Of a stretch of DNA of 12,761 bases, positions 1 through 12,761 are shown piece after piece. How positions within the stretch are numbered: the stretch's first letter is position 1; each line of letters begins with the position of its first letter. The stretch spans positions 1-12,761 of the forward strand of contig JAYEFK010000240.1 in the NCBI GenBank assembly GCA_034658575.1, read 5' to 3'. The DNA comes from Methanobacteriota archaeon (GTDB lineage: Archaea; Halobacteriota; Methanosarcinia; Methanosarcinales; Methanogasteraceae). The notes under the pieces were generated by a model, which was not told the origin of the DNA, ran no database searches, and saw only the letters and a program-made list of their open reading frames with translations. A program made the translations under genes and the position numbers.

Positions 1-30
1 GGCGGGGGGCGGTGAAGACCCGACGCACCG
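1..30 (+). repeat. GC-rich array repeat, copy 0 (only the 3' end is present; cut by the window edge)
   Basis: ggcggggggcggtgaagacccgacgcacc aligns with the 3' part of copies 1 and 3 (ggcggcgggggcggcgaagatgcgagagcgcc). Confidence 0.6.
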
Positions 31-34
31 AAAA

Positions 35-42
35 TTTTATAA
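35..42 (+). promoter_or_regulatory. Putative archaeal TATA box (ttttataa) with a purine-rich BRE-like cgaaaa upstream
   Basis: It matches TTTAWATA and lies 23 nt upstream of the ATG at 65, consistent with a leaderless or short-leader transcript. Confidence 0.4.
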
Positions 43-64
43 CGAGACTGATGTAATCAAATCT

Positions 65-214
65 ATGGAATCGATGCCACAAAAGAGGATGGTTTTAACG
101 ATAGACCCAAATGAATTGAAGGAAGGGGTATGCAAAATATACCCCTCGGAAGATGAAAAATTTGCGGTGTGTTTGGAAAACGAAAAGATTAAAATCTTCC
201 CGATCGAAGAGTGA
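65..214 (+). CDS. Hypothetical small protein (49 aa), first gene of a two-gene cassette
   Basis: My own translation gives MESMPQKRMVLTIDPNELKEGVCKIYPSEDEKFAVCLENEKIKIFPIEE. It is below the ORF-track length cut-off. Its TGA at 212-214 overlaps the GTG at 211 of the next ORF (GTGA coupling). Confidence 0.35.
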   Translation: MESMPQKRMVLTIDPNELKEGVCKIYPSEDEKFAVCLENEKIKIFPIEE

Positions 215-405
215 GAGAAGGTATTTGGATGGATGTCCTTCCCATAAATCTATCGAGAAAGACTAGCGAGATCGTAATAGATCCAACCGTTTTTAAAGAT
301 GGAGATTGCAAAGAGATTCGCGTCTGGAGTTGGAAACGGTTTAAAACAGTAAAATATGTAGTGTGTTATAAAGATAGTGAATTTGTAATATCTAAATTCG
401 ATTGA
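211..405 (+). CDS. Hypothetical small protein (64 aa from GTG 211; alternative ATG at 229)
   Basis: An ORF-track entry that is AT-rich like the other cassettes. Its start overlaps the upstream stop by 4 nt. I recognise no family. Confidence 0.4.
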   Translation: MREGIWMDVLPINLSRKTSEIVIDPTVFKDGDCKEIRVWSWKRFKTVKYVVCYKDSEFVISKFD

Positions 406-548
406 ACATGAATATCTGATGAGTTGTGCTGTCATTGTTGCGTGGTTGAGTCGGGGGTCGCGAGCGGATTAGTGGGTGAACCGGTTAGAGCGTCCGAATA
501 TGGCGTTTCGTTTGCTGGTGAGAAAGTTGTTTTAATTCTGAAGACGCA

Positions 549-764
549 CCACTCGCTCCTTCATTCTTCTACAGATCATCCCCGGCGGCGCATCCGCCAG
601 CGACACCGTGGCGCAGATGCCCCCGCCGCCCGGCTCGCCCGCGACTGCGCACACACGGCACGAATGGGCGGCGGGGGCGGCGAAGATGCGAGAGCGCCCG
701 AGCCGCAAACCATATACCATCACAAACACAAAGAATCCACGAACACTATGCCAGAGGTGGAGAA
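549..764 (+). repeat. GC-rich array repeat, copy 1 (5' arm diverged or truncated; 3' leader module shared with copy 3)
   Basis: The core ctcgctcc...ccccggcggcgcatccgcc...cgccgcccggctcgcc...cacacacggcacgaatgggcgg aligns with copies 2-4. Segment 689-764 aligns with 2502-2587. Confidence 0.85.
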
Positions 765-965
765 ATGCACGAAGAACTAAAATGGTTTGCATCGTTCCCA
801 GATGAACTAAAGAAATTCAGAGGAAAACATATCGCGATAATCGGAACAGAAGTTGTTGCCAGTGGTGATAACGCAATAGCCATCTTGAAGGATGCTAAAA
901 AGAAATTTCCTACTAAAAACCCGGTTCTGGCGTTTGTGCCAAAGGAAGATATGCTGATACTATAG
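765..965 (+). CDS. DUF5678-like small protein (antitoxin-like partner of archaeal retropepsin-like proteases)
   Basis: MHEELKWFASFPDELKKFRGKHIAIIGTEVVASGDNAIAILKDAKKKF... matches my memory of the DUF5678 pattern (W...ELxKKYxGKWVAIxxxxVIASGD...A). An SD aggtggag lies at 755-762. Confidence 0.6.
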   Translation: MHEELKWFASFPDELKKFRGKHIAIIGTEVVASGDNAIAILKDAKKKFPTKNPVLAFVPKEDMLIL

Positions 966-973
966 GTGATCTG

Positions 974-1369
974 ATGGAATTTCCATATCAGAAAGAGCAA
1001 TCAAGACTATTTGGCAATATTTGCAGACCAGTTGCAGAATTTGAAGTGGAGACTGAACTCGGTTGGACGTCGGTACTGGCATATATCGATTCAGGTGCGG
1101 ATATCACACTGCTTCCGATGTCCTTTATAACAGCACTGGATATTCATATTGAAGAAGAAGATATCAATGATATAAGGGGAATTGGAGATGCTAAACTACC
1201 GATAATCGTAAAAAGAGTCAGAATGCGACTCGCTGGAAAAACGTTCGATACTGAAGTTGCAATTGCATTAATGGAGGGTGTTCCATTCCTTTTGGGCAGA
1301 GAGGGCGTCTTTGACCAATTTGAGATATGTTTCAGGAGAAATCGAACGATCCGTTTTGAAGATGCATAA
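974..1369 (+). CDS. Retropepsin-like (clan AA) aspartic protease, small archaeal type
   Basis: It has the catalytic motif AYIDSGADITLLP (hydrophobic-D-S-G-A), a flap-like GIGDA and a C-terminal FLLGREGVF (the LLGRD-like motif). An SD aggtgat lies at 964-970. Confidence 0.75.
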   Translation: MEFPYQKEQSRLFGNICRPVAEFEVETELGWTSVLAYIDSGADITLLPMSFITALDIHIEEEDINDIRGIGDAKLPIIVKRVRMRLAGKTFDTEVAIALMEGVPFLLGREGVFDQFEICFRRNRTIRFEDA

Positions 1370-1422
1370 CGTTTAACGATGGGATTGCGCATCGTCACCA
1401 TTTAATCATCCAGATAGCACAA

Positions 1423-1600
1423 CCCCACAGCCACCCGCCCCCTCTCGCTTCCACGACTCCCCCGGCGGCGCAGCCACCAGCGACACCACGCAGATGCCCC
1501 CGCCGCCCGGCTCGCCTGCGACGAAGCACGCACAGCACGAATAGGCGGTAGGGGGCGGCAAGGATGGAAAGTTTAAATATGCAAGATGGTATAGGTGGAG
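1423..1600 (+). repeat. GC-rich array repeat, copy 2
   Basis: ccccacagccacccgccccctctcgcttccacgactcccccggcggcgca...cgccgcccggctcgcctgcgacgaagcacgcacagcacgaataggcgg aligns with copies 3 and 4 along its full length. The 3' flank is cassette-specific. Confidence 0.85.
1572..1579 (+). promoter_or_regulatory. Putative TATA box (tttaaata) preceded by ggaaag
   Basis: A consensus-like TTTAWATA lies 27 nt upstream of the ATG at 1607. Confidence 0.4.
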
Positions 1601-1606
1601 CCAACA

Positions 1607-1951
1607 ATGCAAGAAGTAGTCACATTTGGGGAAATCTTGGATATGCGCCATGAGAAGTTCGTATTTGAGAGCAAGAAAAATATGGGTGATATTGTATACG
1701 CGCTTGTTCATGAGATAGTTGAATTGAGAAAGGAACTTGAAGAAATTAAGGGCAATAAGTCGGTGGATGTTGTAGAAAGGATCGTAGTGTTAAACGATGT
1801 TTCTTATTCTGTGGCTAAAAGTATGATCGAAGATTATTTGAAAAGCCACGAAGACGTTTATATGTATGAGCTATCTAATGACTTAAGATTGGACTTAAAG
1901 ATTGTCCATGAAATCGTTGAGGAACTAATTAAAGAAGATAAGGTAGAATAG
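1607..1951 (+). CDS. Hypothetical protein with a probable C-terminal winged-helix DNA-binding domain
   Basis: The ORF track starts at GTG 1595. I prefer ATG 1607, which lies 6 nt after the SD aggtggag (1593-1600). The C-terminal VYMYELSNDLRLDLKIVHEIVEELIKEDKV resembles wHTH recognition regions. The family was not identified. Confidence 0.5.
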   Translation: MQEVVTFGEILDMRHEKFVFESKKNMGDIVYALVHEIVELRKELEEIKGNKSVDVVERIVVLNDVSYSVAKSMIEDYLKSHEDVYMYELSNDLRLDLKIVHEIVEELIKEDKVE

Positions 1952-1960
1952 GCGGTTTTC

Positions 1961-2146
1961 ATGCCGATATGCAGAGACAAAGGAGATGCCATAGAAGGAG
2001 AGGTGATAACCTGTCAGGCACGGAAATATGAGGCGATGGTGATAAAAGGAAGTGGGGCGCATAGAGCCACAAGGATTAAATTAAGCAGTAGAGGTAGGAC
2101 TTCTGCATATTGTGTGATAGATAAACCGCTGAAGTGGATAAAATAG
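1961..2146 (+). CDS. Hypothetical small basic protein (61 aa); coding status uncertain
   Basis: An ORF-track entry bounded on both sides by the 9-nt motif aataggcgg, whose TAG supplies the stop of this ORF and of the preceding one. I recognise no family. Confidence 0.3.
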   Translation: MPICRDKGDAIEGEVITCQARKYEAMVIKGSGAHRATRIKLSSRGRTSAYCVIDKPLKWIK

Positions 2147-2348
2147 GCGGATCGTGTCTTAATATGGGGAGCTGCGATGCGATCAGAACCAGCAGCTCAT
2201 AGCTTATGGCGTGACAAGAGACCACCATGATTCAGAACAATATCTGCAATTGCAGTATTGTCAGCAGTGGCTTATTTTGAGAGGGGGACTGAAATAAAGC
2301 ACGTGTGATCGATTCCATATACACATCCCACAAGGCGGTCTACCCATG

Positions 2349-2587
2349 CCCACAGCCGCCTGCCGCCTGCGCACCCGGCAGGCCGTCCCCACCTCGTTCT
2401 CGCTTCCACGACTCTCCCGGCGGCGCATCCGTCCGCGGCGCCCGGCTTGCCTGCAACGAAGCACACACAGCACGAATAGGCGGCTGGGAGTGGCGAAGAT
2501 GCGAGAGCGCCCGAGCCGCAAACCATATACCATATACCATCACAAGCACAAGCAATCCACAAACATAATACCAGAATAGGTGGAGAA
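2349..2587 (+). repeat. GC-rich array repeat, copy 3 (full 5' arm, shortened central hairpin, long 3' leader module)
   Basis: It aligns with copies 2 and 4 over cccacagccgcc...cacgaataggcgg, and with copy 1 over gcgaagatgcgagagcgcccgagccgcaaaccatataccat...ggtggagaaatg. Confidence 0.85.
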
Positions 2588-2625
2588 ATGCGACAAAGAA
2601 TTGCTGGAGTGATCTGGTGGCGACA

Positions 2626-2939
2626 ATGAGTTTTCGTTCGATATCTGGCAACACGGTTGCGCTTACCCGATCTGGAATGGATCATATCGCGAAACGGCAT
2701 CCAGAACTCAAGAACTTCGATTTGGCGAATAGGATCGGTATCGCCGTCGAATCTCCTCTGATTATGTCGTGCAGGGGAAATTTGGCAGACATATCGCTAT
2801 GAGGTCCGAGCCGATGATGTTTGGCAAGGCTAAATACATGGTTGTGATCTACGAAGATGGTGGGGAAGTGATAACAGCATTTATTACTTCAAAGATCGGA
2901 AAGATCATCAGGAGGGATGTACTATGGAAGCGATGTTAA
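2626..2939 (+). pseudogene. Frameshifted toxin-like gene (the family usually annotated DUF4258 and partnered with DUF2283)
   Basis: Frame 1 (2626-2802) gives MSFRSISGNTVALTRSGMDHIAKRHPELKNFD...AVESP. The frame starting at 2733 continues with ...SDYVVQGKFGRHIAMRSEPMMFGKAKYMVVIYEDGGEVITAFITSKIGKIIRRDVLWKRC and stops at 2937-2939. The frame switch lies within 2733-2762, next to a tctcctct tract. Confidence 0.6.
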
Positions 2940-3121
2940 AGGTGAAAACGGTGGAAGCTCTGGATATAGATTACGATTCCGGCAGAGACGTGCTTTACAT
3001 AAGTTTTGGATCACCAACTGCTGCTGATGATGCAGAACTCCTGGATAATGATGTCATCGTGCGGTACAGGCACCACCGGATGGTAGGGATAACGGTTCCA
3101 GATTTTTCGCGAAGAAGTTAA
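2924..3121 (+). CDS. DUF2283-family small protein (antitoxin-like)
   Basis: LDIDYDSGRDVLYISFGSP...DNDVIVRYRHHRMVGITVPDF matches the DUF2283 pattern (YD.E.D.LYI......V.......G.IVGIEI). An SD aggaggg lies at 2909-2915. The gene overlaps the upstream toxin frame by 16 nt. Confidence 0.7.
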   Translation: MEAMLKVKTVEALDIDYDSGRDVLYISFGSPTAADDAELLDNDVIVRYRHHRMVGITVPDFSRRS

Positions 3122-3168
3122 GCGAACAGAGACGTCTCGATCATAGATCGCTATGGGTGGCACCTCGT

Positions 3169-3330
3169 CCACAGCCGCCCGCCGCCTGCACACACGCCTC
3201 TGCCCGCCCCCGCTCATCTTTCGCGACCCCCGGCGGCGCATCCGCCTGGGACGTCACAACGCAGAGGCTCCCGCCGCCCGGCTTGCCTGCGACGAAGCAC
3301 ACACAGCACGAATTGGCGGCGAAGGGCGCC
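3169..3330 (+). repeat. GC-rich array repeat, copy 4 (terminal copy, abutting host DNA)
   Basis: ccacagccgcccgccgcctgcac...gacccccggcggcgcatccgcc...ccgccgcccggcttgcctgcgacgaagcacacacagcacgaattggcggcgaag aligns with copies 2 and 3. Homology is lost after about 3326. Confidence 0.85.
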
Positions 3331-3429
3331 ACGATGTGTGCAGAGGTCAAGGCACCCCCCGTACTGGTACTGTGTTATCGGCACCTCGCGGTAGCAGCGA
3401 TACCACAACCTTGATATGCACATCTCCCG

Positions 3430-4596
3430 ATGTCGTCAGACAGAGGCGTTTATTTGACTGAATTTGACATACACGTTGGCTACACACACATCAAAAATCC
3501 GATCGCGCTTGCACCGATGGCAGGCATCACAAACATCGACTTTGTCAGGGATCATGCAATGAGCGCAGGGCTTGCCGTGATCGGCGGATATAATCTGGAC
3601 GATGCGACAAACGAGGCAGCAAGGAGCATTAACGAGCGCGGGCGTGCTGAATTTGTGACACCCGAGCCTACCAAACATCTGCGAAGCGAACTCGATCGCC
3701 TGGAAGGGATGGGTGACTCCCCCACAATCGCACTCAACGTCAGAAGCGCTGAAATTATGCCGCTAATGGAGACGGCACATCTCGCAAAGGAGTATGGCGC
3801 AATCCTTGAGATCGATTGCCATTGCCGACAGCCGGAGATGACAGATATCGGGGTGGGCGAACCTCTTCTTCACGATTTGCAGAAACTTGGATCGATCATC
3901 TCGAAGATCAAGGAAACCGGGGTTGTTCTCTCTGTAAAGACCAGATCCGGAATCGTTGACGACCGCGAACTTGCGGTAGCGATCGAGGAGGCAGGCGCGG
4001 ATATGATCCACATCGATGCCATGGAACCCGGATATGGCGCTGACTATAATGCGATCAAGGCGGTAAGAAATGCCACCGATCTCTTTATGATATGCAACAA
4101 TTCCGTCACGGATTTCAGAAGCGCAAAGGATATGTTCGGATACGGTGCAGACATGGTCTCGCTTGCGCGAGCTGTGCCCAAGATTCCAGGAGTGATAGAT
4201 GACCTTGTCCGCTCTGTCACCACCTTTCAGAAGCAGACCGGCTGGTACAATGCACCAAAGCACATCTGCAGCGGAGGAGACGATCGGGCACTCGCGTTCT
4301 GCTGCCTGCCTGTCAAGCGGTGTGCGCTCATGCGGGTGCTCCGCAGGTATGGGATGACGCCGCAGGAGTTTGCAGACTTAAAGGTCGAACTCTCACGCGG
4401 AACACCGCTCGAACTTGGAGATAACACATGCTTCGGGACGCTGATATGGTGCTGCAAACTCACAAAACCGTGCTTCATGCGTGACGCTGTGCTCGATCAG
4501 ATCGGCATTTCAGGAGCCCAGTATATGAAACTCAAGAAACAGCTCTCTGAAGGTATTCTTAATCGCCTCAGAAACTCCCAATCTCAGCTGCTGTGA
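3430..4596 (+). CDS. Methanogenesis marker domain 9-type protein: N-terminal TIM-barrel-like region plus a C-terminal 8-Cys domain
   Basis: The C-terminus contains FCCLPVKRC and WCCKLTKPC plus four more Cys, matching my recollection of the [WFY]CCxxKPC x2, eight-invariant-Cys marker-9 domain. The N-terminal APMAGITN resembles Dus/NifR3-like barrels. Confidence 0.6.
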   Translation: MSSDRGVYLTEFDIHVGYTHIKNPIALAPMAGITNIDFVRDHAMSAGLAVIGGYNLDDATNEAARSINERGRAEFVTPEPTKHLRSELDRLEGMGDSPTIALNVRSAEIMPLMETAHLAKEYGAILEIDCHCRQPEMTDIGVGEPLLHDLQKLGSIISKIKETGVVLSVKTRSGIVDDRELAVAIEEAGADMIHIDAMEPGYGADYNAIKAVRNATDLFMICNNSVTDFRSAKDMFGYGADMVSLARAVPKIPGVIDDLVRSVTTFQKQTGWYNAPKHICSGGDDRALAFCCLPVKRCALMRVLRRYGMTPQEFADLKVELSRGTPLELGDNTCFGTLIWCCKLTKPCFMRDAVLDQIGISGAQYMKLKKQLSEGILNRLRNSQSQLL

Positions 4597-6649: not shown

Positions 6650-8170
6650 ATGCGGAACGATGGCAAAGAGAATGATGCTGGAGAGGCTGTGACAAACGAG
6701 ATTATAGTGGTTTCGAAGAAGGAGATGGACGAGAAGGACGAGCTGATCGCATCCCTGAAGGTTAAAGCCGAGAAGATGAAATCCGACTTTGTGCGGTACA
6801 AAGAGCGGACTCAAAACGAAGGCGAAGAGATACGGAGGAAAACATCCGGCGAATTGGTCCGGCAGTTGCTGATCGTCGCTGACACGCTTGAACGTGCTGT
6901 ATATAGCTATGAGAGGGGCGCCGGGGGGGTGGGTGAGTGCGAGGTCGTGGACAGGATGGTAGAGGGGACACGAAGCAGCATGGAGATGACCTACAATCAG
7001 TTGCTGGACGCGTCAGGGGTCGTTCCGATCGCACCATCAGCAGGTGAACGGTTCGATGATGAACTGCACACCGCAATAGAGACCGCGCAAGATCCTCTTC
7101 TTCCGGACAAGACCATTCTGTCCCTTGTCCGGAAAGGATATATGCTGAACAACGAGTTGATCCGACCGGCTGAGGTGATCATCTCCAGAGGCGGCGGCGA
7201 ACCTGTAGAAGGGGGGCAGGACGGAGATACCGACAGAGGGAAGAGAACACGAGAAGCAAAGCCCGGAACGATGATGTCGCGATTTATGCGGCGTTTTGTG
7301 AAGAGGTCGCTTGAAGTGGAGTTGAAGGAGATCGCGGAGAGAGAACAGAAATTGGGGGAGCGCGCACGTGAATTGGTCCGTAACGAGGAAATACTCAGAA
7401 CTTCGGTCAAAGAACTTGACCGGCGAGAGAATGAATTTAAAAAAATAGAAGAAGAATGGACAAAAAGAAAAGGAGAAGCAGAATCGGGAGTTCTTGATTT
7501 AGAACAACGCAGAGAAGTGTTGGAAGCCGAGATCAGGGAATCAAAGAGACAATTATCCGCCATCACTGATGCTCTCAATGAACAGAGGGTTAATGAGGAT
7601 AAGATCGTTGTTGAGAGCATTGCGCTTGGCAGATATAACGTTGAGCTATCAGAAGAGCGGGGAAAGTTGTCAAACCAGATAGATGAGATGGAAGGAAAAA
7701 GGGAAGCGCTTAATTATGAATTGACGGATATGGGCGAACGAAGAGCATGGAACATCGAAGAGCAGTCAAAGATGGAGCAAAAAACAGCAGGGCTCGATGA
7801 AAAGTTGTCCATGTCAGAAAATGAGTTACAAAAAGCAAAAGAACTGGTAAATGCGGAATCAGAGGTGGTTCGCGAGCTTGTGCAGCGCAAAGAATCGCTG
7901 GCAGCAGAGATAGAAGAAACAGAGAGGGTGCTGGAGATCGCTTACGAGAATCTGGATGAGCTGGACGGCAGGAAAGATAAATTGGTCATCGAAAGCATCG
8001 CCCTCCACCGGTACAACGAGGCGCTGTTAGAAGAGCGTGGGGAACTGCTAAACGAGATTGAAGTAGGTGCGGAGGACACGAGTGAAGTAGAAGAAGATGT
8101 CGGAGAAGATATGGATGAAGAAAAAAAGAAGAAATCCGCATTTACAATATCCACACCATTCTGGTGCTGA
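6650..8170 (+). CDS. grpE: GrpE-domain nucleotide exchange factor fused to a long C-terminal coiled coil with an acidic tail
   Basis: The first ~185 aa show the GrpE pattern (KSDFVRYKERTQNE...LLIVADTLERAV...FDDELHTAIE...VRKGYMLNNELIRPAEVIIS). About 310 further aa are E/K/R/L-rich heptad-like sequence containing a duplicated module. Confidence 0.8.
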   Translation: MRNDGKENDAGEAVTNEIIVVSKKEMDEKDELIASLKVKAEKMKSDFVRYKERTQNEGEEIRRKTSGELVRQLLIVADTLERAVYSYERGAGGVGECEVVDRMVEGTRSSMEMTYNQLLDASGVVPIAPSAGERFDDELHTAIETAQDPLLPDKTILSLVRKGYMLNNELIRPAEVIISRGGGEPVEGGQDGDTDRGKRTREAKPGTMMSRFMRRFVKRSLEVELKEIAEREQKLGERARELVRNEEILRTSVKELDRRENEFKKIEEEWTKRKGEAESGVLDLEQRREVLEAEIRESKRQLSAITDALNEQRVNEDKIVVESIALGRYNVELSEERGKLSNQIDEMEGKREALNYELTDMGERRAWNIEEQSKMEQKTAGLDEKLSMSENELQKAKELVNAESEVVRELVQRKESLAAEIEETERVLEIAYENLDELDGRKDKLVIESIALHRYNEALLEERGELLNEIEVGAEDTSEVEEDVGEDMDEEKKKKSAFTISTPFWC

Positions 8171-8186
8171 AAACAGGTGATATAAC

Positions 8187-9962
8187 ATGCAAAGAGAAAT
8201 AATCGGGATCGATTTCGGTACGACGAACTCAGGGATAGCGTTCATCGAATTCGACGAGCCAACAATCATAGAGAACAACGAAAACGAGCGAGTCACTCCG
8301 TCTGTTGTGTATTTTAAGGAGGGGGGAGATGTTGTGGTCGGAAGCGCTGCAAAGCGTAACATCATCGCAAGCCCGGAGCGGACTGTTGCGTCGATCAAGA
8401 GGCAGATGGGCACCGACCACAAGGTGCAGATCGGCAAGGAGCCATATCCGCCAGAGTACGTGGCAGCGCACATCATCAAAAAACTTGTCTCCGATGCTGA
8501 GAAGCGAATCGGGACGCAGATCACGGACGTTATAATAACGGTGCCCGCATATTTCATGGACTCGCAGCGGCAGGCAGTCAAGGACGCTGGCGAGATCGCG
8601 GGCTTGAATGTGCGCGGGATCCTAAACGAGCCGACCGCCGCCGCACTAGCGTTCGGATTTGAGGATGAAGGCGAGGAACGCAGAATCCTTGTCTACGACT
8701 TCGGCGGTGGCACGTTCGATGTTTCAATCCTCTCGATCGGGGACGGGTTCTACGATGTCGATGCAACGAGTGGCGACAACCATCTCGGTGGCGATGACAT
8801 CGATTCACGGATCGAGGAGTTTATCATCGATAAAATAATAGAAAAGCACAAAATAGATCTTAGAAGTAAGAAGAATGGAGATAGATCAGTGCTTCAGTCG
8901 GTCCGGGAAGAAGCCGAGCGTGTGAAGATCGAACTGTCTGATAAAGAGCGCGCGACCATCAATTTACCATACCTGAGTAAGAGCAAGCAGGGCTCGCCAA
9001 TTACGTTTAGCTACACCCTGACAAGGCAGGAATTCAACGAACTCATCTTCGATTTCATCGAACGGACACGAAATCCGATGAAACAAGCGCTCGACGATGC
9101 TGCGCTTCATCCGGACGAGATCGATAATATACTCATGGTTGGCGGGACCACGTACATACCCGCGGTGCAGGAGTTTGTGCGCGACTTCTTTGGCAAGGAA
9201 CCAGAGCACAAGATCGACCCGATCGAGGTGGTCTCGCTCGGAGCGGCGGTTGCTACCCTGAAAGACGGCGTCAAAGAGAATGATGAGAAAGGCAGGGAAA
9301 AAGAGGGGGAAAAAGGAATATCCGGAACGATAAGACGACCTGTTGAGATAAGTGATGTCGCCTCCCGTTCTATCGGAGTTTCAGTTGCAGACGGGACTGT
9401 TTCAAAGATCATTTCAAGGAACACAAAGATTCCGGTCATACAGGCGAAGCCGTTTACGAACGCAGGAGATTATGGGGACGAGGTGATAATCGAGGTGTAC
9501 CAGGGAGAGAGCCTGTATCCGGAGGAGGGTGGCTATCTTGGCGAGTTCTGGATAGATATTGAGCCAAAACCCGTGGGCGAATCGGAGATCGATGTCACTT
9601 TTGCGATCGGGGAGGAGTTTGGCATCTTGCATGTAACTGCAAAGGATCATGACTCTGGCAATGAGCGGACCGTGAAGATGGAGGCTGTAGGCAGGCTCAC
9701 AAAGAGAGAAAAAAACAAGTGGATGCGAAAGATGCTAAATACATACGCAATCGAAGTAACGGTTGAAAATATCGATACACGGGATGTTCTGGACTATTAC
9801 CTCAATCCAAGCGCGACTATCCATGATGTGAGGCGGGACCTTATGAAGAAAGGTATCTTGAGTGAAGGGATGGGCATCTTCTACGATGATGAAGCGCTCG
9901 ATGATGAATCCCTGGTCCGGGACCTGGATATAACAGACGGTTCGACGCTGGAATTAAAATGA
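8187..9962 (+). CDS. dnaK: Non-canonical Hsp70/DnaK-family ATPase with a C-terminal ubiquitin-like domain in place of the helical lid
   Basis: Hsp70 motifs are present: GIDFGTTNS, VPAYFMDSQRQAVKDAGEIAGL, NEPTAAALAFG, DFGGGTFDVS and LMVGGTTYIPAVQEFV. A beta-sandwich SBD-like region follows (RSIGVSV...IPV...EVYQGES...IDVTFAI...ILHVTAKD). The last ~70 aa are ubiquitin-like. An SD aggtga lies 6 nt upstream. Confidence 0.85.
   Translation: MQREIIGIDFGTTNSGIAFIEFDEPTIIENNENERVTPSVVYFKEGGDVVVGSAAKRNIIASPERTVASIKRQMGTDHKVQIGKEPYPPEYVAAHIIKKLVSDAEKRIGTQITDVIITVPAYFMDSQRQAVKDAGEIAGLNVRGILNEPTAAALAFGFEDEGEERRILVYDFGGGTFDVSILSIGDGFYDVDATSGDNHLGGDDIDSRIEEFIIDKIIEKHKIDLRSKKNGDRSVLQSVREEAERVKIELSDKERATINLPYLSKSKQGSPITFSYTLTRQEFNELIFDFIERTRNPMKQALDDAALHPDEIDNILMVGGTTYIPAVQEFVRDFFGKEPEHKIDPIEVVSLGAAVATLKDGVKENDEKGREKEGEKGISGTIRRPVEISDVASRSIGVSVADGTVSKIISRNTKIPVIQAKPFTNAGDYGDEVIIEVYQGESLYPEEGGYLGEFWIDIEPKPVGESEIDVTFAIGEEFGILHVTAKDHDSGNERTVKMEAVGRLTKREKNKWMRKMLNTYAIEVTVENIDTRDVLDYYLNPSATIHDVRRDLMKKGILSEGMGIFYDDEALDDESLVRDLDITDGSTLELK
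9750..9959 (+). other. Ubiquitin-like (beta-grasp) domain at the Hsp70 C-terminus; no terminal Gly-Gly
   Basis: IEVTVENIDTRDVLDYYLNPSATIHDVRRDLMKKGILSEGMGIFYDDEALDDESLVRDLDITDGSTLELK lines up with ubiquitin [70 protein letters not shown] at the hallmark hydrophobic and PS.TI..V positions. Confidence 0.6.
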
Positions 9963-11122
9963 GAAAAGCAAAGAAGTCAAAGGCGAAGAAGGCAGAGATC
10001 TCGGAAGAGGAGCTGGCATATAACGAGTGGATGCAGCTCTTCGCCTGTGACGACCCGTATTGGAAATTCCCGACGCGATATGTGGATTTTTCGCGGCTGA
10101 TAGGGCATGGAAAAAGAATGGAAAGTTTTGAAGAACAGTATTCAGACTGCATCGAGGATCTCCTGTTAGGGGTTCCAACGTATTATTGCGTGCTCTGTGT
10201 CTCGAAGAACGACCCGCCTGATGTGATCAAGGAGGCATACCAGCGAAAGATCGAACACTCCACGTATCCTGATGATGTGATCGAAAGAGCCTGCGAGACG
10301 TTAAGCGACAGGAAAAAGCGTTCCGACTATGAGGAGATTTTGCGCCTTTTTCTGAAGCTCATGCAGGGATACAGTGCGAAAGATAAGCGGGAGCTGGTAG
10401 AAGAGCATGATGAATGGATAGAAGATGAGAAAGATTATGCTACAGTGAATTACCTTATGAAGCATCGCGGTGCATGGCTTAACCTCTATCACCTCGGTGC
10501 ACCTACGTTCTACGAGCTTCTTGGTGTGGATCAGGTGAAATTGAAGCCGGAGGAAGTAGTGCAATGTAAAAATGATGGTGTGGACAAGAGATTGGTAGAA
10601 GACGTCTGTAGTGTACTGAACAATCCGCAGTTGAGGTTCGAATACGATTTTATGCTTTGCAGGGCGGATGAAATTCTGCCGGTGGATTATCTGATGGGCG
10701 GCGAAAGCAGTAAACCAGTGTGGAAGGGGGACGATCGCTCGTATCTGGTGGCGCTTAGATGTTATGAAGGCGTAAACAAGCAGGACCTGATTATGAATGA
10801 ACACATTGATTGGGTAGACTACATCGGCGATAAAACGTTTTACGATGTGTTGACCATCGACAGGGATTCGATTCCAGAGGATAAACGAGAAGCAGAGAGA
10901 TTTATCAGGAATGTGTACAAGGGATTGGAACGGACACCAGAGGTCAATCGTGCGTACAGCGTTTTAAAAAATTTTAGGATGAGGGCTGACTATGATTGGA
11001 TGTTGAAGCAGAATGCAATAATTGATGCGCTGAAGGGGATCGCTATGACTGAGCCGGACGATACGACCTTAGATAAGCTGCTAGATAAGATGCTAGAACT
11101 GTCGGATGCGGACAGGGAGTGA
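9959..11122 (+). CDS. Protein with three tandem degenerate J-like domains (no HPD, no Zn finger, no G/F region)
   Basis: J1 is TYYCVLCVSKNDPPDVIKEAYQRKIEHSTYPDDVIERACETLSDRKKRSDYEEIL. J2 is TFYELLGVDQ...LVEDVCSVLNNPQLRFEYDFML. J3 is TFYDVLTIDRDS...VNRAYSVLKNFRMRADYDWML. The ATG at 9959 overlaps the Hsp70 stop (ATGA). Confidence 0.65.
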   Translation: MRKAKKSKAKKAEISEEELAYNEWMQLFACDDPYWKFPTRYVDFSRLIGHGKRMESFEEQYSDCIEDLLLGVPTYYCVLCVSKNDPPDVIKEAYQRKIEHSTYPDDVIERACETLSDRKKRSDYEEILRLFLKLMQGYSAKDKRELVEEHDEWIEDEKDYATVNYLMKHRGAWLNLYHLGAPTFYELLGVDQVKLKPEEVVQCKNDGVDKRLVEDVCSVLNNPQLRFEYDFMLCRADEILPVDYLMGGESSKPVWKGDDRSYLVALRCYEGVNKQDLIMNEHIDWVDYIGDKTFYDVLTIDRDSIPEDKREAERFIRNVYKGLERTPEVNRAYSVLKNFRMRADYDWMLKQNAIIDALKGIAMTEPDDTTLDKLLDKMLELSDADRE

Positions 11123-11309: not shown

Positions 11310-12761
11310 ATGCAGGTCTTACATGCAATCTGGAACGGCGATGAACTGTGCTTATGGGCGGAGGCATCCGCGCTGCCACTGACCGCCCCGCCCCGCCGCG
11401 GAAGACCGCCAAAAAATCCAAAGCCAAGGACTCACCCATTCTCGCTTCCTGCCGATATGCTGAGTGAGATCGTCGAAAGCAACTTCGGGCATACCCCGTC
11501 CGGAATCGGGACGGTGCCGCTTCTCCTCCCCTCGACACAGAGAGGTCCGCTGCCATCGCCGTGGCTTGTCCGGGAGGAGGAGTACGACCACGGGAACGCG
11601 ACCGCGCTTGCCGGCTGGAATGTCGAGACGCTAATATTTGACCCGGGGGGCGCGTTTGATCTCTTACTCGATCTACCAGCCCGCCCACACCGCGGCACCG
11701 CCTTTGGAAGTTCGCTTCGGTTCTGGACCGAAGCAGCCCTATTCTCGCTTGCGCTTATCACGGAAGAACAGTTCATACCCACAATCAGAGAGAATGTCGC
11801 GGTCTGGACCGCGGTGATCGCTGGAGATGACGTGGAACGGATGCACACACTCGCAGATGCGATGCCCGCATACTGCCGGGCACTCATCATCTGGAAAGAT
11901 GGCAGCCCATGCGCACAGGATACACCGCCACGGCTCATGATTCGGAGTTTCATCGACCGAACCGTTGACGTGTTCGTGCGCAGGAGCCTTGAGTCTATAT
12001 CACTGATCCCGCCCCGCCGCGGTCGCCGCCCCAAAATCACCCCGATGCCGGAGCGGTTCCTATCGGCACTGTCAACCTGGGATCCCGCGATCGATGCCCC
12101 GATCGAGGATGTGGCAGCATTCTCGGGAGAGTTAGAGGGGTGGCTCACCGGGCTCCAGCCAGCCATGCCATCTGCGCCATTCCGCACGTGTTTCAGGCTC
12201 GATGCGCCACCGGATCCTGATGAGGAGGAGTATGAAGCGATGGAGGGTGGCGATTATGATGATGAAGATGGTGGTGGGAGTGGTGGTGGCGATGAAACTC
12301 GATACAGGGATCAAGAGCGGGACTGGAATATGTGGAGTCTCGGTTTCTTCCTCCAGGCGAAGGACGATCCGAGTCTGCTGATCCCTGCGGATAAGGTATG
12401 GAAGACACGGTCGGAAACGCTCACGTTTCTCAAACGAAAGTTCAAAAACCCGCAGGAGCAGTTGCTTGCCGACCTTGGCAGAGCTTCTCAGACATACCCC
12501 CCAATCGAGAAGAGTTTGCAGGATGCACGCCCTGTGGGGTTTGATATGAGTGCGGGGCAGGCGTATTCCTTCCTGCGGGAGTTTGCCCCTCTTCTTGAAC
12601 AGAACGGTTTCGGAGTCCTTCTCCCGCCATGGTGGGAGAAACCGGGCGCACGGCTCGGCGTCAAATTAAAGATCAATACACCGTCTCCTGTGCAGGAAGG
12701 TGGCATCGGTTCAGGGCATTTCAGCGTCAAATCGATCATGTCTTACGACTGGACGGTAGCG
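11310..12761 (+). CDS. SNF2-family helicase, N-terminal SNF2-helicase-associated region (partial; continues beyond the window)
   Basis: My own translation is open for 484 codons to the window end and is absent from the ORF track because it has no stop. MQVLHAIWNGDELCLWAEA... is the typical start of prokaryotic SNF2_assoc-domain helicases. An SD aggag lies 7 nt upstream. The helicase motifs are not yet reached. Confidence 0.7.
   Translation, partial: MQVLHAIWNGDELCLWAEASALPLTAPPRRGRPPKNPKPRTHPFSLPADMLSEIVESNFGHTPSGIGTVPLLLPSTQRGPLPSPWLVREEEYDHGNATALAGWNVETLIFDPGGAFDLLLDLPARPHRGTAFGSSLRFWTEAALFSLALITEEQFIPTIRENVAVWTAVIAGDDVERMHTLADAMPAYCRALIIWKDGSPCAQDTPPRLMIRSFIDRTVDVFVRRSLESISLIPPRRGRRPKITPMPERFLSALSTWDPAIDAPIEDVAAFSGELEGWLTGLQPAMPSAPFRTCFRLDAPPDPDEEEYEAMEGGDYDDEDGGGSGGGDETRYRDQERDWNMWSLGFFLQAKDDPSLLIPADKVWKTRSETLTFLKRKFKNPQEQLLADLGRASQTYPPIEKSLQDARPVGFDMSAGQAYSFLREFAPLLEQNGFGVLLPPWWEKPGARLGVKLKINTPSPVQEGGIGSGHFSVKSIMSYDWTVA

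Follow-up and report, generated by a model that had tools for sequence, protein, structure and literature searches.

At positions 1-3373 of the window, the whole 12,761-nt stretch of DNA that was analysed, five members of a single repeat family, four of them full-length and one partial, alternate with four AT-rich small-gene modules. All repeats lie on the + strand, as do all features described below. nhmmer places them at 1-103 (partial), 539-782, 1380-1657, 2308-2599 and 3133-3373, with E-values between 1e-46 and 1e-61, and these ranges agree to within some tens of bases with the places where the preliminary description had seen a single family. A 23-nt core motif occurs four times against a chance expectation of 0.00, and GGCGGCGCATCC four times against 0.13. 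The three compositional classes of that description also hold, the GC content being 68-72% in the cores, 39-46% in the cassettes and 52% in the host genes. Each unit of the array combines a core (about 180 nt), a promoter/5'UTR module (some 60-90 nt) and one to three small genes.

The contig starts inside a repeat, and the core 3' end at 1-30 (nhmmer match 1-103, model columns 203-311) aligns to the 3' ends of full cores that lie 5' of the same cassette in three other loci (L002, L004, L007). Core copy 2 (584-677; central motif 584-595, core motif 649-671) is 5'-truncated, the segment between two direct GGCGGCGCATCC motifs being deleted. Copy 3 spans 1387-1555 with motifs at 1464-1475 and 1526-1548, while copy 4 (2336-2490; motifs 2419-2430 and 2461-2483) has an internal 23-nt deletion. 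The terminal copy 5 (3158-3319) is joined directly to the host flank, GAATTGGCGGCG being followed by AAGGGCGCCACGATG. This right end of the array, at about 3319, is the exact start of homology to repeat-less relatives and lies 111 nt 5' of the ATG of methanogenesis marker 9; the array had indeed been proposed to end at the upstream region of a conserved methanogen gene. The right flank (3320-4596) consists of a conserved upstream region (3320-3429) and the marker-9 (Dus-like) gene (3430-4596), whose protein is 100% identical to P0001, and it is conserved in eight other loci (L010, L011, L020, L045-L047, L049, L050).

Since each cassette has its own promoter module, each would form its own transcription unit; the TATA-like boxes of these modules are probably promoters, judging from their sequence. 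The modules belong to a few subtypes, which are reused before unrelated genes. The one of cassette 1 (31-64) has the putative TATA-like box AAAATTTTATAA at 31-42 and is conserved together with its cassette in L002, L004, L007, L023, L029 and L036. Cassette 1 itself (65-405) comprises two small overlapping ORFs, 65-214 (49 aa) and 211/229-405 (64/58 aa), with no Pfam match and a coding substitution pattern across seven orthologs from other arrays. Its non-coding tail (406-583) continues into the 5' motif of the next repeat, and the block common to this tail, L002 and L007 stops at CCCGTGGCGGCGCATCC. Cassette 2 (765-1369) is preceded by a common module at 678-764 (GGCGAAGATGCGAGAGCGCCCGAGCCGCAAA; TATA-like CATATACC at 711-718; Shine–Dalgarno-like GAGGTGGAG at 754-762). 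This module type stands before unrelated cassettes in many loci, its identity following the downstream cassette. Cassette 2 encodes a DUF5678 protein (765-965; Pfam, 3e-17) and a retropepsin-like protein (974-1369), whose match to Asp_protease_2 is weak (1e-3, under the curated cut-off). A copy in L005 is 91.5% identical, and the pair of genes occurs in ANME-1 as a solitary module without the core.

Cassette 3 (1607-2146), with ORFs 1595/1607-1951 (118/114 aa) and 1961-2146 (61 aa), follows a module at 1556-1606 with a presumed promoter box, the TATA-like TTTAAATA at 1572-1579. The cassette recurs with the same module in L024 and L030; its ORFs have no significant Pfam match, and their substitutions against orthologs in L022, L024 and L030 follow the pattern of coding sequence. 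Before cassette 4 (2626-3121), comparison with copy 2 and L007 reveals the common module reused at 2491-2625. A 13-codon uORF (2588-2629), whose stop overlaps the next ATG (ATGA), is the relic of a DUF5678 start. The cassette holds a frameshifted BECR/PBECR2-like toxin gene (2626-2939) and a DUF2283 antitoxin-like gene (2924-3121; Pfam, 4e-8), and its copy in L007 is 87% identical. The frameshifted gene has an intact ortholog in L034, whose 106-aa product is weakly PBECR2/BECR-like (PBECR2, E = 1.3e-3). In all the cassette ORFs of the window, codon position 3 varies most and position 2 least against orthologs, as in coding sequence. Comparison bore out that the four modules are mutually unrelated. 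Of the families assigned to them beforehand, DUF5678 and DUF2283 stand and the retropepsin is weak; the label "DUF4258-like" for 2626-2939 gives way to a weak PBECR2/BECR likeness seen through the intact copy, as there is no direct DUF4258 match, and "wHTH" for 1595-1951 goes back only to an insignificant FeoC match (E = 0.19).

A profile search with the repeat model recovered 96 copies in 30 loci, nearly all from ANME-2c/Candidatus Methanogaster MAGs, metagenomes and one 40-kb record; viral contigs gave no matches. All 96 copies lie in co-oriented arrays with strands never mixed, none is solitary, and the median spacing is about 800 nt, contrary to what a MITE or REP element scattered over the genome would give. 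The array is specific to the ANME-2c archaea (Candidatus Methanogaster, methane-oxidising) and sits in a variable hotspot that is bounded by the fwdC terminator and the marker-9 gene. Most contigs are fragmentary because assemblies break at the repeats. One contig (L020) contains a complete locus, in the order fwdDBAC, HATPase gene, core, HicB, core, HEPN+MNT, marker 9. At this one chromosomal place cassette order and content vary between genomes. The cargo is almost entirely type II toxin–antitoxin pairs: HicA/HicB, HEPN/MNT, DUF5678/protease, DUF4258, PIN, MqsA and DUF2283. A true cassette array with toxin–antitoxin cargo, as had been suggested, recurs in many related genomes. With about even confidence, we read positions 1-3373 as the right-hand end of such a chromosomal hypervariable array.

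The core is rich in C on the coding strand and is conserved at the sequence level. It is non-coding, its indels being mostly of 1-2 nt with no 3-base periodicity. About 60 nt of it exceed 90% conservation across some 80 copies that are saturated elsewhere, and some selective constraint probably holds this block near-invariant. The GC-rich repeat had been called structured, a description that does not survive: folding of the window copies does not surpass that of shuffled sequence (z -2.4 to +0.7), RNAalifold on 51 copies returned four pairs (-2.2 kcal/mol) with zero compensatory changes, and the one long stem, seen in copy 2, is disrupted in many of the others with no compensating change. Terminal inverted repeats in the core do not exceed the shuffle level. 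The core is tied to neither adjoining cassette, its identity being about 0.80 whichever neighbouring cassette is common. Sequence linked to the upstream cassette extends to model column 30, and that linked to the downstream one begins at about columns 206-221; both boundaries are sharp, each at a GGGCGGCG motif. A third copy of this motif lies inside the small palindrome GGCGG-CGCAT-CCGCC. Deletions recur exactly between these motifs, the same one, between the 5' and central motifs, being found in about 9 of 82 copies. In terminal cores the truncation points differ (model positions 84, 135, 166, 176 and about 206).

Traces of recombination are found within the cores. Strains L007 and L021, with flanks 99.7-100% identical, differ at 21 core positions, all in columns 83-156. 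As the L021 variant is the sequence of the two neighbouring cores, this 75-nt patch is a recent gene conversion from adjacent cores. Orthologous cores are 81-87% identical, whereas their flanks are 92-95% identical. Only one breakpoint is of high identity (L025/L026, 98.8% over 926 nt), and it falls within the 3' block of conserved core sequence. Anatomy, distribution, cassette shuffling, core-cassette unlinking and a conversion patch are observed, and homologous recombination would be what moves the cassettes. The best reading, which we give an even chance of being right, is a homology-driven cassette array that operates without a dedicated integrase and is not site-specific. One conversion event and one breakpoint are all that was caught directly. 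Moreover, cores within one array are no more alike (0.79) than between genomes (0.80), in a star-like pairwise pattern, which counts against frequent gene conversion, as this should homogenise them. Homologous recombination alone gives no account of the first entry of new genes into the array, nor of the conservation of the 60-nt block.

The sharp motif-bounded edges and recurrent deletions are a pattern that a site-specific system would also leave. A tyrosine or serine recombinase encoded elsewhere might recombine short GGCGGCG(CATCC) sites at both core edges and at the centre, excising and inserting cassettes or cores as modules; we find such exchange rather improbable, and equally the wider idea of a site-specific cassette system with an unlinked recombinase, like integrons/CALINs or Xer-dependent pdif modules. 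Cassette-linked sequence does end sharply at TTTGGG before CGGCGCATCC and start after GAATGGGCGGCG with GGGG/AAGA. The same 7-8-nt element stands at all types of junction, among them the one from core to host in the window and that from cassette to host in L020. The nearly invariant 5+5+5 palindrome at the centre, the identical deletions and the unlinked core fit as well. However, terminal cores end at various positions and not at a single site, the only recent breakpoint that is well resolved falls some 30 nt into the core and off the motif, and the patch observed is a homologous conversion. GGCGGCG is also a slippage-prone, low-complexity microhomology in a segment of 70% GC, and a 5-bp spacer with 5-bp arms is not known from tyrosine-recombinase core sites such as loxP, dif and attC. 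No integrase or transposase appeared in the full Pfam tables of 30 array-edge and cargo ORFs, including the complete L020 locus, and no recombinase in the gene table of a 10-kb stretch of array (L044) or among the matches listed (25 of 105 Pfam families) for 82 further larger flanking ORFs, whose other families may include one. None was linked to an array at about ten array edges, inside arrays or in the one complete locus. If the GGCGGCG motifs are real sites, the pdif modules of Acinetobacter plasmids would be the model, being discrete, often toxin–antitoxin modules with short sites at their ends for the use of a housekeeping recombinase encoded elsewhere. The pdif sites are 28 bp long, with 11-bp arms and a 6-bp spacer, in alternating orientation; the present motifs are direct repeats with a 5+5+5 palindrome embedded in a long conserved core, and their Xer dependence is only putative.

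The chief role of the core could instead be cis-regulatory and common to the cassettes: it would amount to a mobile promoter equipped with an upstream control element and put all cassettes under one regulator, which we regard as a minority possibility. The array would then grow by duplication of the upstream module and replacement of the gene behind it, recombination between cores being a by-product, and this we hold to be similarly doubtful. The core always stands directly 5' of a TATA-like box in gene orientation, even the terminal core having the same relative position 5' of the marker-9 promoter. The near-invariant 60 nt lack base-pairing or coding constraint, as protein-binding DNA would, and module subtypes are reused before unrelated genes, in cassette 4 down to a relic start codon. 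Putative mobile promoters reportedly propagate in prokaryotes (Matus-Garcia, Nijveen and van Passel, 2012). They are alike in placing homologous upstream sequence, promoter included, before non-homologous genes, but are dispersed and usually IS-linked, whereas here a long conserved element lies 5' of the promoter in one kind of array. A conserved element of 180 nt is very large for an archaeal operator, no regulator was identified, and autoregulation is the norm in toxin–antitoxin operons. In ANME-1 the pair of cassette 2 works without the core, and regulation by itself leaves cassette shuffling and the restriction of the repeat to arrays unexplained. Regulation is compatible with the homology-driven explanation and does not exclude it.

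We consider it very unlikely that the core is a MITE/REP-like non-autonomous element inserted at a GGGCGGCG target between pre-existing toxin–antitoxin operons. It is unlinked to both flanks and has GGGCGGCG on both sides, readable as a target-site duplication. Yet no copy is solitary among ordinary genes, terminal inverted repeats stay at the shuffle level, no transposase was seen in the vicinity, and viral contigs have no match. Near-identical cores occur only at the same position in near-identical contigs, so nothing points to recent transposition, and the pairwise identities (about 0.80) form a star-like pattern. REP/BIME, Correia and other intergenic repeats are likewise short and non-coding and may carry promoters or affect neighbouring genes, but they are palindromic or bounded by inverted repeats and genome-scattered in both orientations, none of which applies here.

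An array of canonical integron or CALIN type whose attC sites have diverged has next to no chance and is refuted on the defining features tested: the RYYYAAC/GTTRRRY ends, conserved hairpin and upstream-ORF linkage are absent, no intI was found among the ORFs and Pfam families covered, and each cassette has its own putative promoter. The layout alone fits, with small, promoter-proximal cassettes in alternation with repeats, a cargo of toxin–antitoxin genes and, within 4 kb, more than two sites. The attC sites of the archaeal integrons reported to date are canonical (PMC9668308). Sedentary chromosomal integrons and CALINs, such as the Vibrio super-integron with its VCR attC and the archaeal ones (PMC9668308), do resemble the array in their long co-oriented runs of small cassettes between similar repeats, their many toxin–antitoxin cassettes, contents that differ between related genomes and the frequent lack of an integrase on the same contig. 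Here, by contrast, a repeat of about 180-300 nt lies 5' of the genes, adjoins a promoter and is conserved in sequence, not structure. Of the integron-like interpretation first offered, the organisational analogy stands, as does the statement that the repeat is no canonical attC; the mechanism fails on structure, linkage, promoters and the varied truncation points. It had been tied to a recombinase linked to some array of the repeat, and as none was found, it falls on present data.

Returning to the homology-driven array, its mechanism would have its closest analogue in the orphan toxin–immunity cassette arrays of CDI, Rhs and MafB systems, where tandem co-oriented cassettes each follow a conserved segment that supplies homology for recombinational swapping (PMC3482391). 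In those polymorphic toxin loci the segment is a fragment of the main-toxin coding sequence and the cassettes have no starts of their own (PMC3482391), whereas here the repeat is non-coding and the cassettes behind it are whole type II toxin–antitoxin operons, each with a putative promoter. We propose that the cores serve as portable homology, on which general homologous recombination and short-patch gene conversion between co-oriented copies could act. Recombination from core to core would in this way delete, duplicate, reorder and import cassettes, without the need for a dedicated integrase.

The left part of the window carries five copies of one direct-repeat family, all on the + strand, located by a profile of these copies at 1-103 (partial), 539-782, 1380-1657, 2308-2599 and 3133-3373. 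As the preliminary description had claimed, this single co-oriented family alternates with small-gene modules, a layout on which alignment, repeat search and profile agree (E-values 1e-46 to 1e-61). The 23-nt core motif occurs four times in the window against 0.00 expected, and GGCGGCGCATCC four times against 0.13. Its claim of three compositional classes was confirmed as well, with a GC content of 68-72% in the repeat cores, 39-46% in the cassettes and 52% in the host genes.

The four modules between the window repeats are mutually unrelated. Pfam recovers two of the families first named as cargo, DUF5678 (765-965) and DUF2283 (2924-3121, the intact partner gene of cassette 4), and gives a weak match for the retropepsin (974-1369). 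The gene described as DUF4258-like has instead a weak PBECR2/BECR likeness. This toxin-like gene of cassette 4 (2626-2939) is frameshifted in the window (ORFs 2617-2802 and 2769-2939) and has an intact 106-aa ortholog in locus L034. The remaining cassette ORFs have no assigned family. Since their substitutions relative to orthologs fall mainly at third codon positions, we consider them real genes.

Two further features of the window lie to the right of the array. An apparent and unusual Hsp70 operon (6650-11122) encodes a GrpE-like protein (506 aa) that includes a long, charged coiled coil, an HSP70-like protein (591 aa) whose orthologs in L011 and L047 show a faint C-terminal ubiquitin-like match, and a 387-aa protein that faintly resembles DnaJ. 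Some relatives have this operon downstream of the methanogenesis marker-9 gene (marker 9) and others, such as L049, do not. A GC-rich direct repeat (CCCGCCCCGCCGCGG...AAAA), unrelated to that of the array, has two copies separated by 621 nt (11387-11415 and 12008-12036), which lie within or close to the final long ORF.

In each unit of the array repeat, a core of about 180 nt, spanning CGGCGCATCC to GAATGGGCGGCG, precedes a putative promoter/5'UTR module. Three direct copies of GGCGGCG are located in the core, at its 5' edge, in a central palindrome (GGCGG-CGCAT-CCGCC) and at its 3' edge, and about 9 of 82 repeat copies, including window copy 2, lack precisely the stretch from the 5' to the central motif. 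Conservation exceeds 90% over all repeat copies in a block of about 60 nt (CGCCGCCCGGCTCGCCTGCGACGAAGCACGCACAGCACGAATGGGCGGCG). Such strong sequence constraint suggests that the core also binds something, for instance a shared regulator, and GC-biased gene conversion could be the cause of its very high GC content.

Judged by sequence, every cassette is preceded, within its own module, by a TATA-like box and often by a Shine–Dalgarno-like GAGGTG. These modules fall into a few subtypes that are shared by unrelated genes; the module GGCGAAGATGCGAGAGCGCCCGAGCCGCAAACCATATA..., for example, stands ahead of DUF5678, BECR-like, HEPN and HicB cassettes. A homologous upstream region, predicted promoter included, is thus found before non-homologous genes, which is the arrangement that defines a mobile promoter. 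The reused module of window cassette 4 keeps a relic DUF5678 start codon, at which a 13-codon uORF (MRQRIAGVIWWRQ, 2588-2629) opens; its end overlaps the start of the cassette-4 gene by ATGA, and the two may be translationally coupled.

When one genome per species was scanned for the exact pattern, nine stretches were returned, eight of them in Methanosarcinales/ANME-2c MAGs, and a scan of metagenomes gave 26 more. Exact-pattern matches in three non-archaeal contigs (L006, L016 and L032) lack any profile match and were discarded as chance, as were those of L017 and L039, where the profile fit spans just about 29 bases around the pattern. The profile detected 96 copies in 30 loci, a census made on genome fragments. 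All of them sit in arrays, each array on a single strand, with a median spacing of 797 nt (range 562-1250). By cluster members and scan hits, the organism group is ANME-2c / Candidatus Methanogaster, and the array is restricted to ANME-2c. Contigs often begin or end within a core (the window start, L003, L026, L030, L040, L049 and L050), which indicates that the arrays break short-read assemblies of Methanogaster MAGs.

The complete locus is found in the JGI contig L020, where the gene order is fwdD/B/A/C, a 650-aa HATPase_c_3 protein, a core, HicB, a core, HEPN with an MNT nucleotidyltransferase, and marker 9. As L020 shows the locus up to this last gene (3430-4596 in the window), we conclude that the window is the right end of an array; it is a whole contig and starts inside a repeat. 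Its marker-9 protein is 100% identical to one from an NCBI MAG. Left ends after fwdC were found in five loci (L001, L002, L018, L027 and L044). The left edge falls directly after a terminator-like hairpin at the fwdC 3' end, GTGAGTGTG...CACACTCAC GGGGG T7 (L020 4880-4950), conserved also in L001, L002, L018 and L027, and beyond its T-run five genomes share nothing. Because all genomes diverge at this point, the variable region has a sharp left border. The right edge lies between GCG and A(A/G)GGGYGYCACGATG, at window position ~3319. In a 40-kb record of ANME-2c ERB4, at least seven cores extend over 8.6 kb after fwdC, and the cargo includes a 748-aa DndB-like gene. Other arrays are flanked by DUF2099, a histidine kinase, alaS, or a rhodanese-like gene with ferritin and flavodoxin genes behind it. 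These varied flanks imply either more than one site or rearranged flanks. In L005 an intact DUF2099 gene adjoins the array on its left; in L048 (16168-18435) a ParE-type toxin–antitoxin pair has apparently inserted into this gene and split it.

No cores lie upstream of closely related marker-9 genes; GCA_048635765.1, GCA_034717055.1 and the L010 lineage are among the close relatives that lack the repeat at this locus. The same position is occupied by a 23S-5S rRNA operon that replaces the array in L045 (6400-9349) and L046, two other ANME-2 genomes with marker-9 proteins of the same 90% cluster; by an RVT_1 reverse transcriptase (293 aa) and its 133-aa partner, possibly retron- or DRT-like, in L048 (6235-7514); and by an AAA_15/AAA_21 ATPase pair in L010 (4793-6750). 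This suggests that the site upstream of marker 9 is a general hotspot or island for variable and defence genes. Some loci look like decayed arrays (L010 9058-9866; L049 and L050 at about 1270-1360): L010 has a last cassette tail in common with L049 and has lost the core, and in L049 and L050 just core columns 115-165 of the repeat profile remain ahead of the marker-9 flank. The flank itself (CCCGGACTTGCC...GCACGG...CGAGGGGTGCCACGAT) shows a loose MAFFT likeness to the core 3' block when window 3260-3345 is compared with L045 9850-9930, and it might hint at the origin of the repeat; nhmmer --max gave no significant match between flank and block.

The preliminary description had asked whether the locus is identical across relatives. 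It is not, as both cassette order and neighbours vary between genomes and the same cassettes recur in different order. Window cassette 1 is also present in L002, L004, L007, L023, L029 and L036, cassette 2 has a copy in L005 (91.5% identity), and cassette 4 one in L007 (87% identity) behind different neighbours. The cargo amounts to 36 protein clusters, nearly all of toxin–antitoxin families, including by Pfam HicA (4 clusters), HicB (3), DUF4258 (2), PIN, MqsA and DUF2283, and the pairs HEPN + NTP_transf_2, UPF0175 + DUF3368 and DUF5678 + Asp protease. The cargo thus fits type II modules, in which small genes of recognised toxin and antitoxin families stand side by side. In ANME-1 (L041-L043) the DUF5678 + retropepsin-like pair is a solitary, tight two-gene module between FrhB-like and FAD oxidoreductase genes and without repeats. 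This fits a self-contained, toxin–antitoxin-like unit and indicates that only the ANME-2c lineage has the array.

We hypothesize that cores undergo homologous recombination and gene conversion with one another and that this would be the engine of cassette turnover, and we give an even chance to a homology-driven cassette array. Linkage was tested on 82 unique copies: excess likeness of pairs with only the upstream cassette in common stops at column 30, and that of pairs with only the downstream cassette in common begins at about columns 206-221, while the intervening core stays at a background identity of ~0.80 in both classes. Since cores are scrambled faster than flanks, this test does not separate site-specific from homologous exchange. 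Orthologous cores are 81-87% identical against 92-95% for their flanks. Core identity is the same within an array as between genomes, and simple concerted evolution within arrays was rejected on this ground. In two near-identical strains (flanks 99.7-100%), one core differs at 21 positions, all in columns 83-156, and the variant has the sequence of two neighbouring cores of the same array, indicating a recent gene-conversion patch. The sole high-identity breakpoint (L025/L026) falls inside the core, in its conserved 3' block, and the end points of terminal cores vary. The fast scrambling, the conversion patch, the breakpoint inside the core and the varied terminal ends all favour homology as the engine.

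It is also conceivable, if unlikely, that the array is a new site-specific platform, comparable in function to an integron, in which complete toxin–antitoxin or defence operons would be swapped at a fixed hotspot through GGCGGCG(CATCC) sites, located within a 180-nt putative protein-binding core, by a recombinase or accessory protein whose gene lies elsewhere in the genome. The sharp, motif-bounded edges and the recurrent motif-to-motif deletions speak for this; the varied terminal ends and the breakpoint within the core point to homology-driven exchange.

The integron-like reading of the preliminary description holds for the layout and fails for the attC ends, the hairpin, the integrase and the linkage to the upstream ORF. 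In the archaeal integrons known so far, the attC sites are canonical (PMC9668308). As stated in that description, the repeat lacks attC ends: neither R'' (RYYYAAC) nor R' (GTTRRRY) is conserved in the consensus of 82 copies, where the sole GCAAC is a minority variant of GCGAC. No conserved attC-type hairpin, with structure kept and sequence variable, was found in a 51-copy alignment or by stem counts. A site travelling with the upstream ORF is not seen either, as pairs sharing only the upstream cassette are at background identity from column 31 on, in a test whose power is lowered by gene conversion. Integron cassettes are mostly promoterless and expressed from a common Pc; each cassette of the array has a predicted promoter module of its own. 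The description had also made its reading depend on a recombinase linked to some array. An integron would have an intI integrase with attI at the array start; no integrase was found at the five array starts after fwdC, at the starts in L005 and L009 or in the whole L020 locus, on contigs short enough that a distant intI may have escaped. No integrase or transposase appeared in full Pfam tables of 30 edge and cargo ORFs of the arrays, in the gene tables of L020 and L044 or, as an indication only, among the best 25 of 105 families for 82 further flanking ORFs.

Sites of the pdif/Xer type are 28-bp dif-like sequences with 11-bp arms and a 6-bp spacer in alternating orientation. The array motifs differ in being direct repeats, with GGCGG-CGCAT-CCGCC as the sole palindrome. 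A MITE or REP element would be dispersed in both orientations beside unrelated genes, and genome-wide scattering had been named at the outset as evidence against the integron-like reading; all 96 copies, counted on fragments, lie in co-oriented arrays. No terminal inverted repeats or palindromic unit were found: local alignment of the 5' end with the reverse complement of the 3' end scored 9.0 and 6.0, against 7.2±1.2 and 6.5±1.3 for shuffles.

The repeat had been called structured, and this was not borne out. Single-copy folds have shuffle-like energies (z-scores -2.4 to +0.7), RNAalifold on 51 copies gave four pairs at -2.2 kcal/mol with no compensatory changes, and explicit stem counts found one long stem whose central 6 bp are invariant and whose outer pairs are broken without compensation. 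A structured RNA of any Rfam family was rejected, as no covariance model matched the window at gathering score; a tRNA/tmRNA scan of the window found none. The C-rich 5' half has no excess of C-runs (5.2 against 5.6 in shuffles), so a G-quadruplex or i-motif receives no specific support; a strict G4 pattern occurs in 8 cores against 24 expected. A coding repeat, and with it an orphan cassette array of polymorphic toxins in which the repeat is a fragment of the main-toxin CDS, was rejected because indels are mostly of 1-2 nt and 3-base periodicity is absent. Viral carriage was rejected on the basis of zero repeat matches among IMG/VR viral contigs.

We found no earlier description of such a repeat-bounded cassette array in the limited literature searched. 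ANME-2c archaea are uncultured, slow-growing methane consumers of marine sediments, and to our knowledge almost nothing is known about accessory-gene exchange among their genomes. The array provides a natural archaeal cassette platform without integron machinery, and it accounts for the Methanogaster assembly breaks at the locus. Its repeat-and-promoter unit is compact and testable for archaeal genetics. If homologous recombination between repeats drives the array, an integron-like layout can form with no integrase; should the GGCGGCG motifs be the target of a dedicated enzyme, this would be a new recombination system. Under either mechanism, the arrays mark a hotspot of defence and toxin–antitoxin genes.
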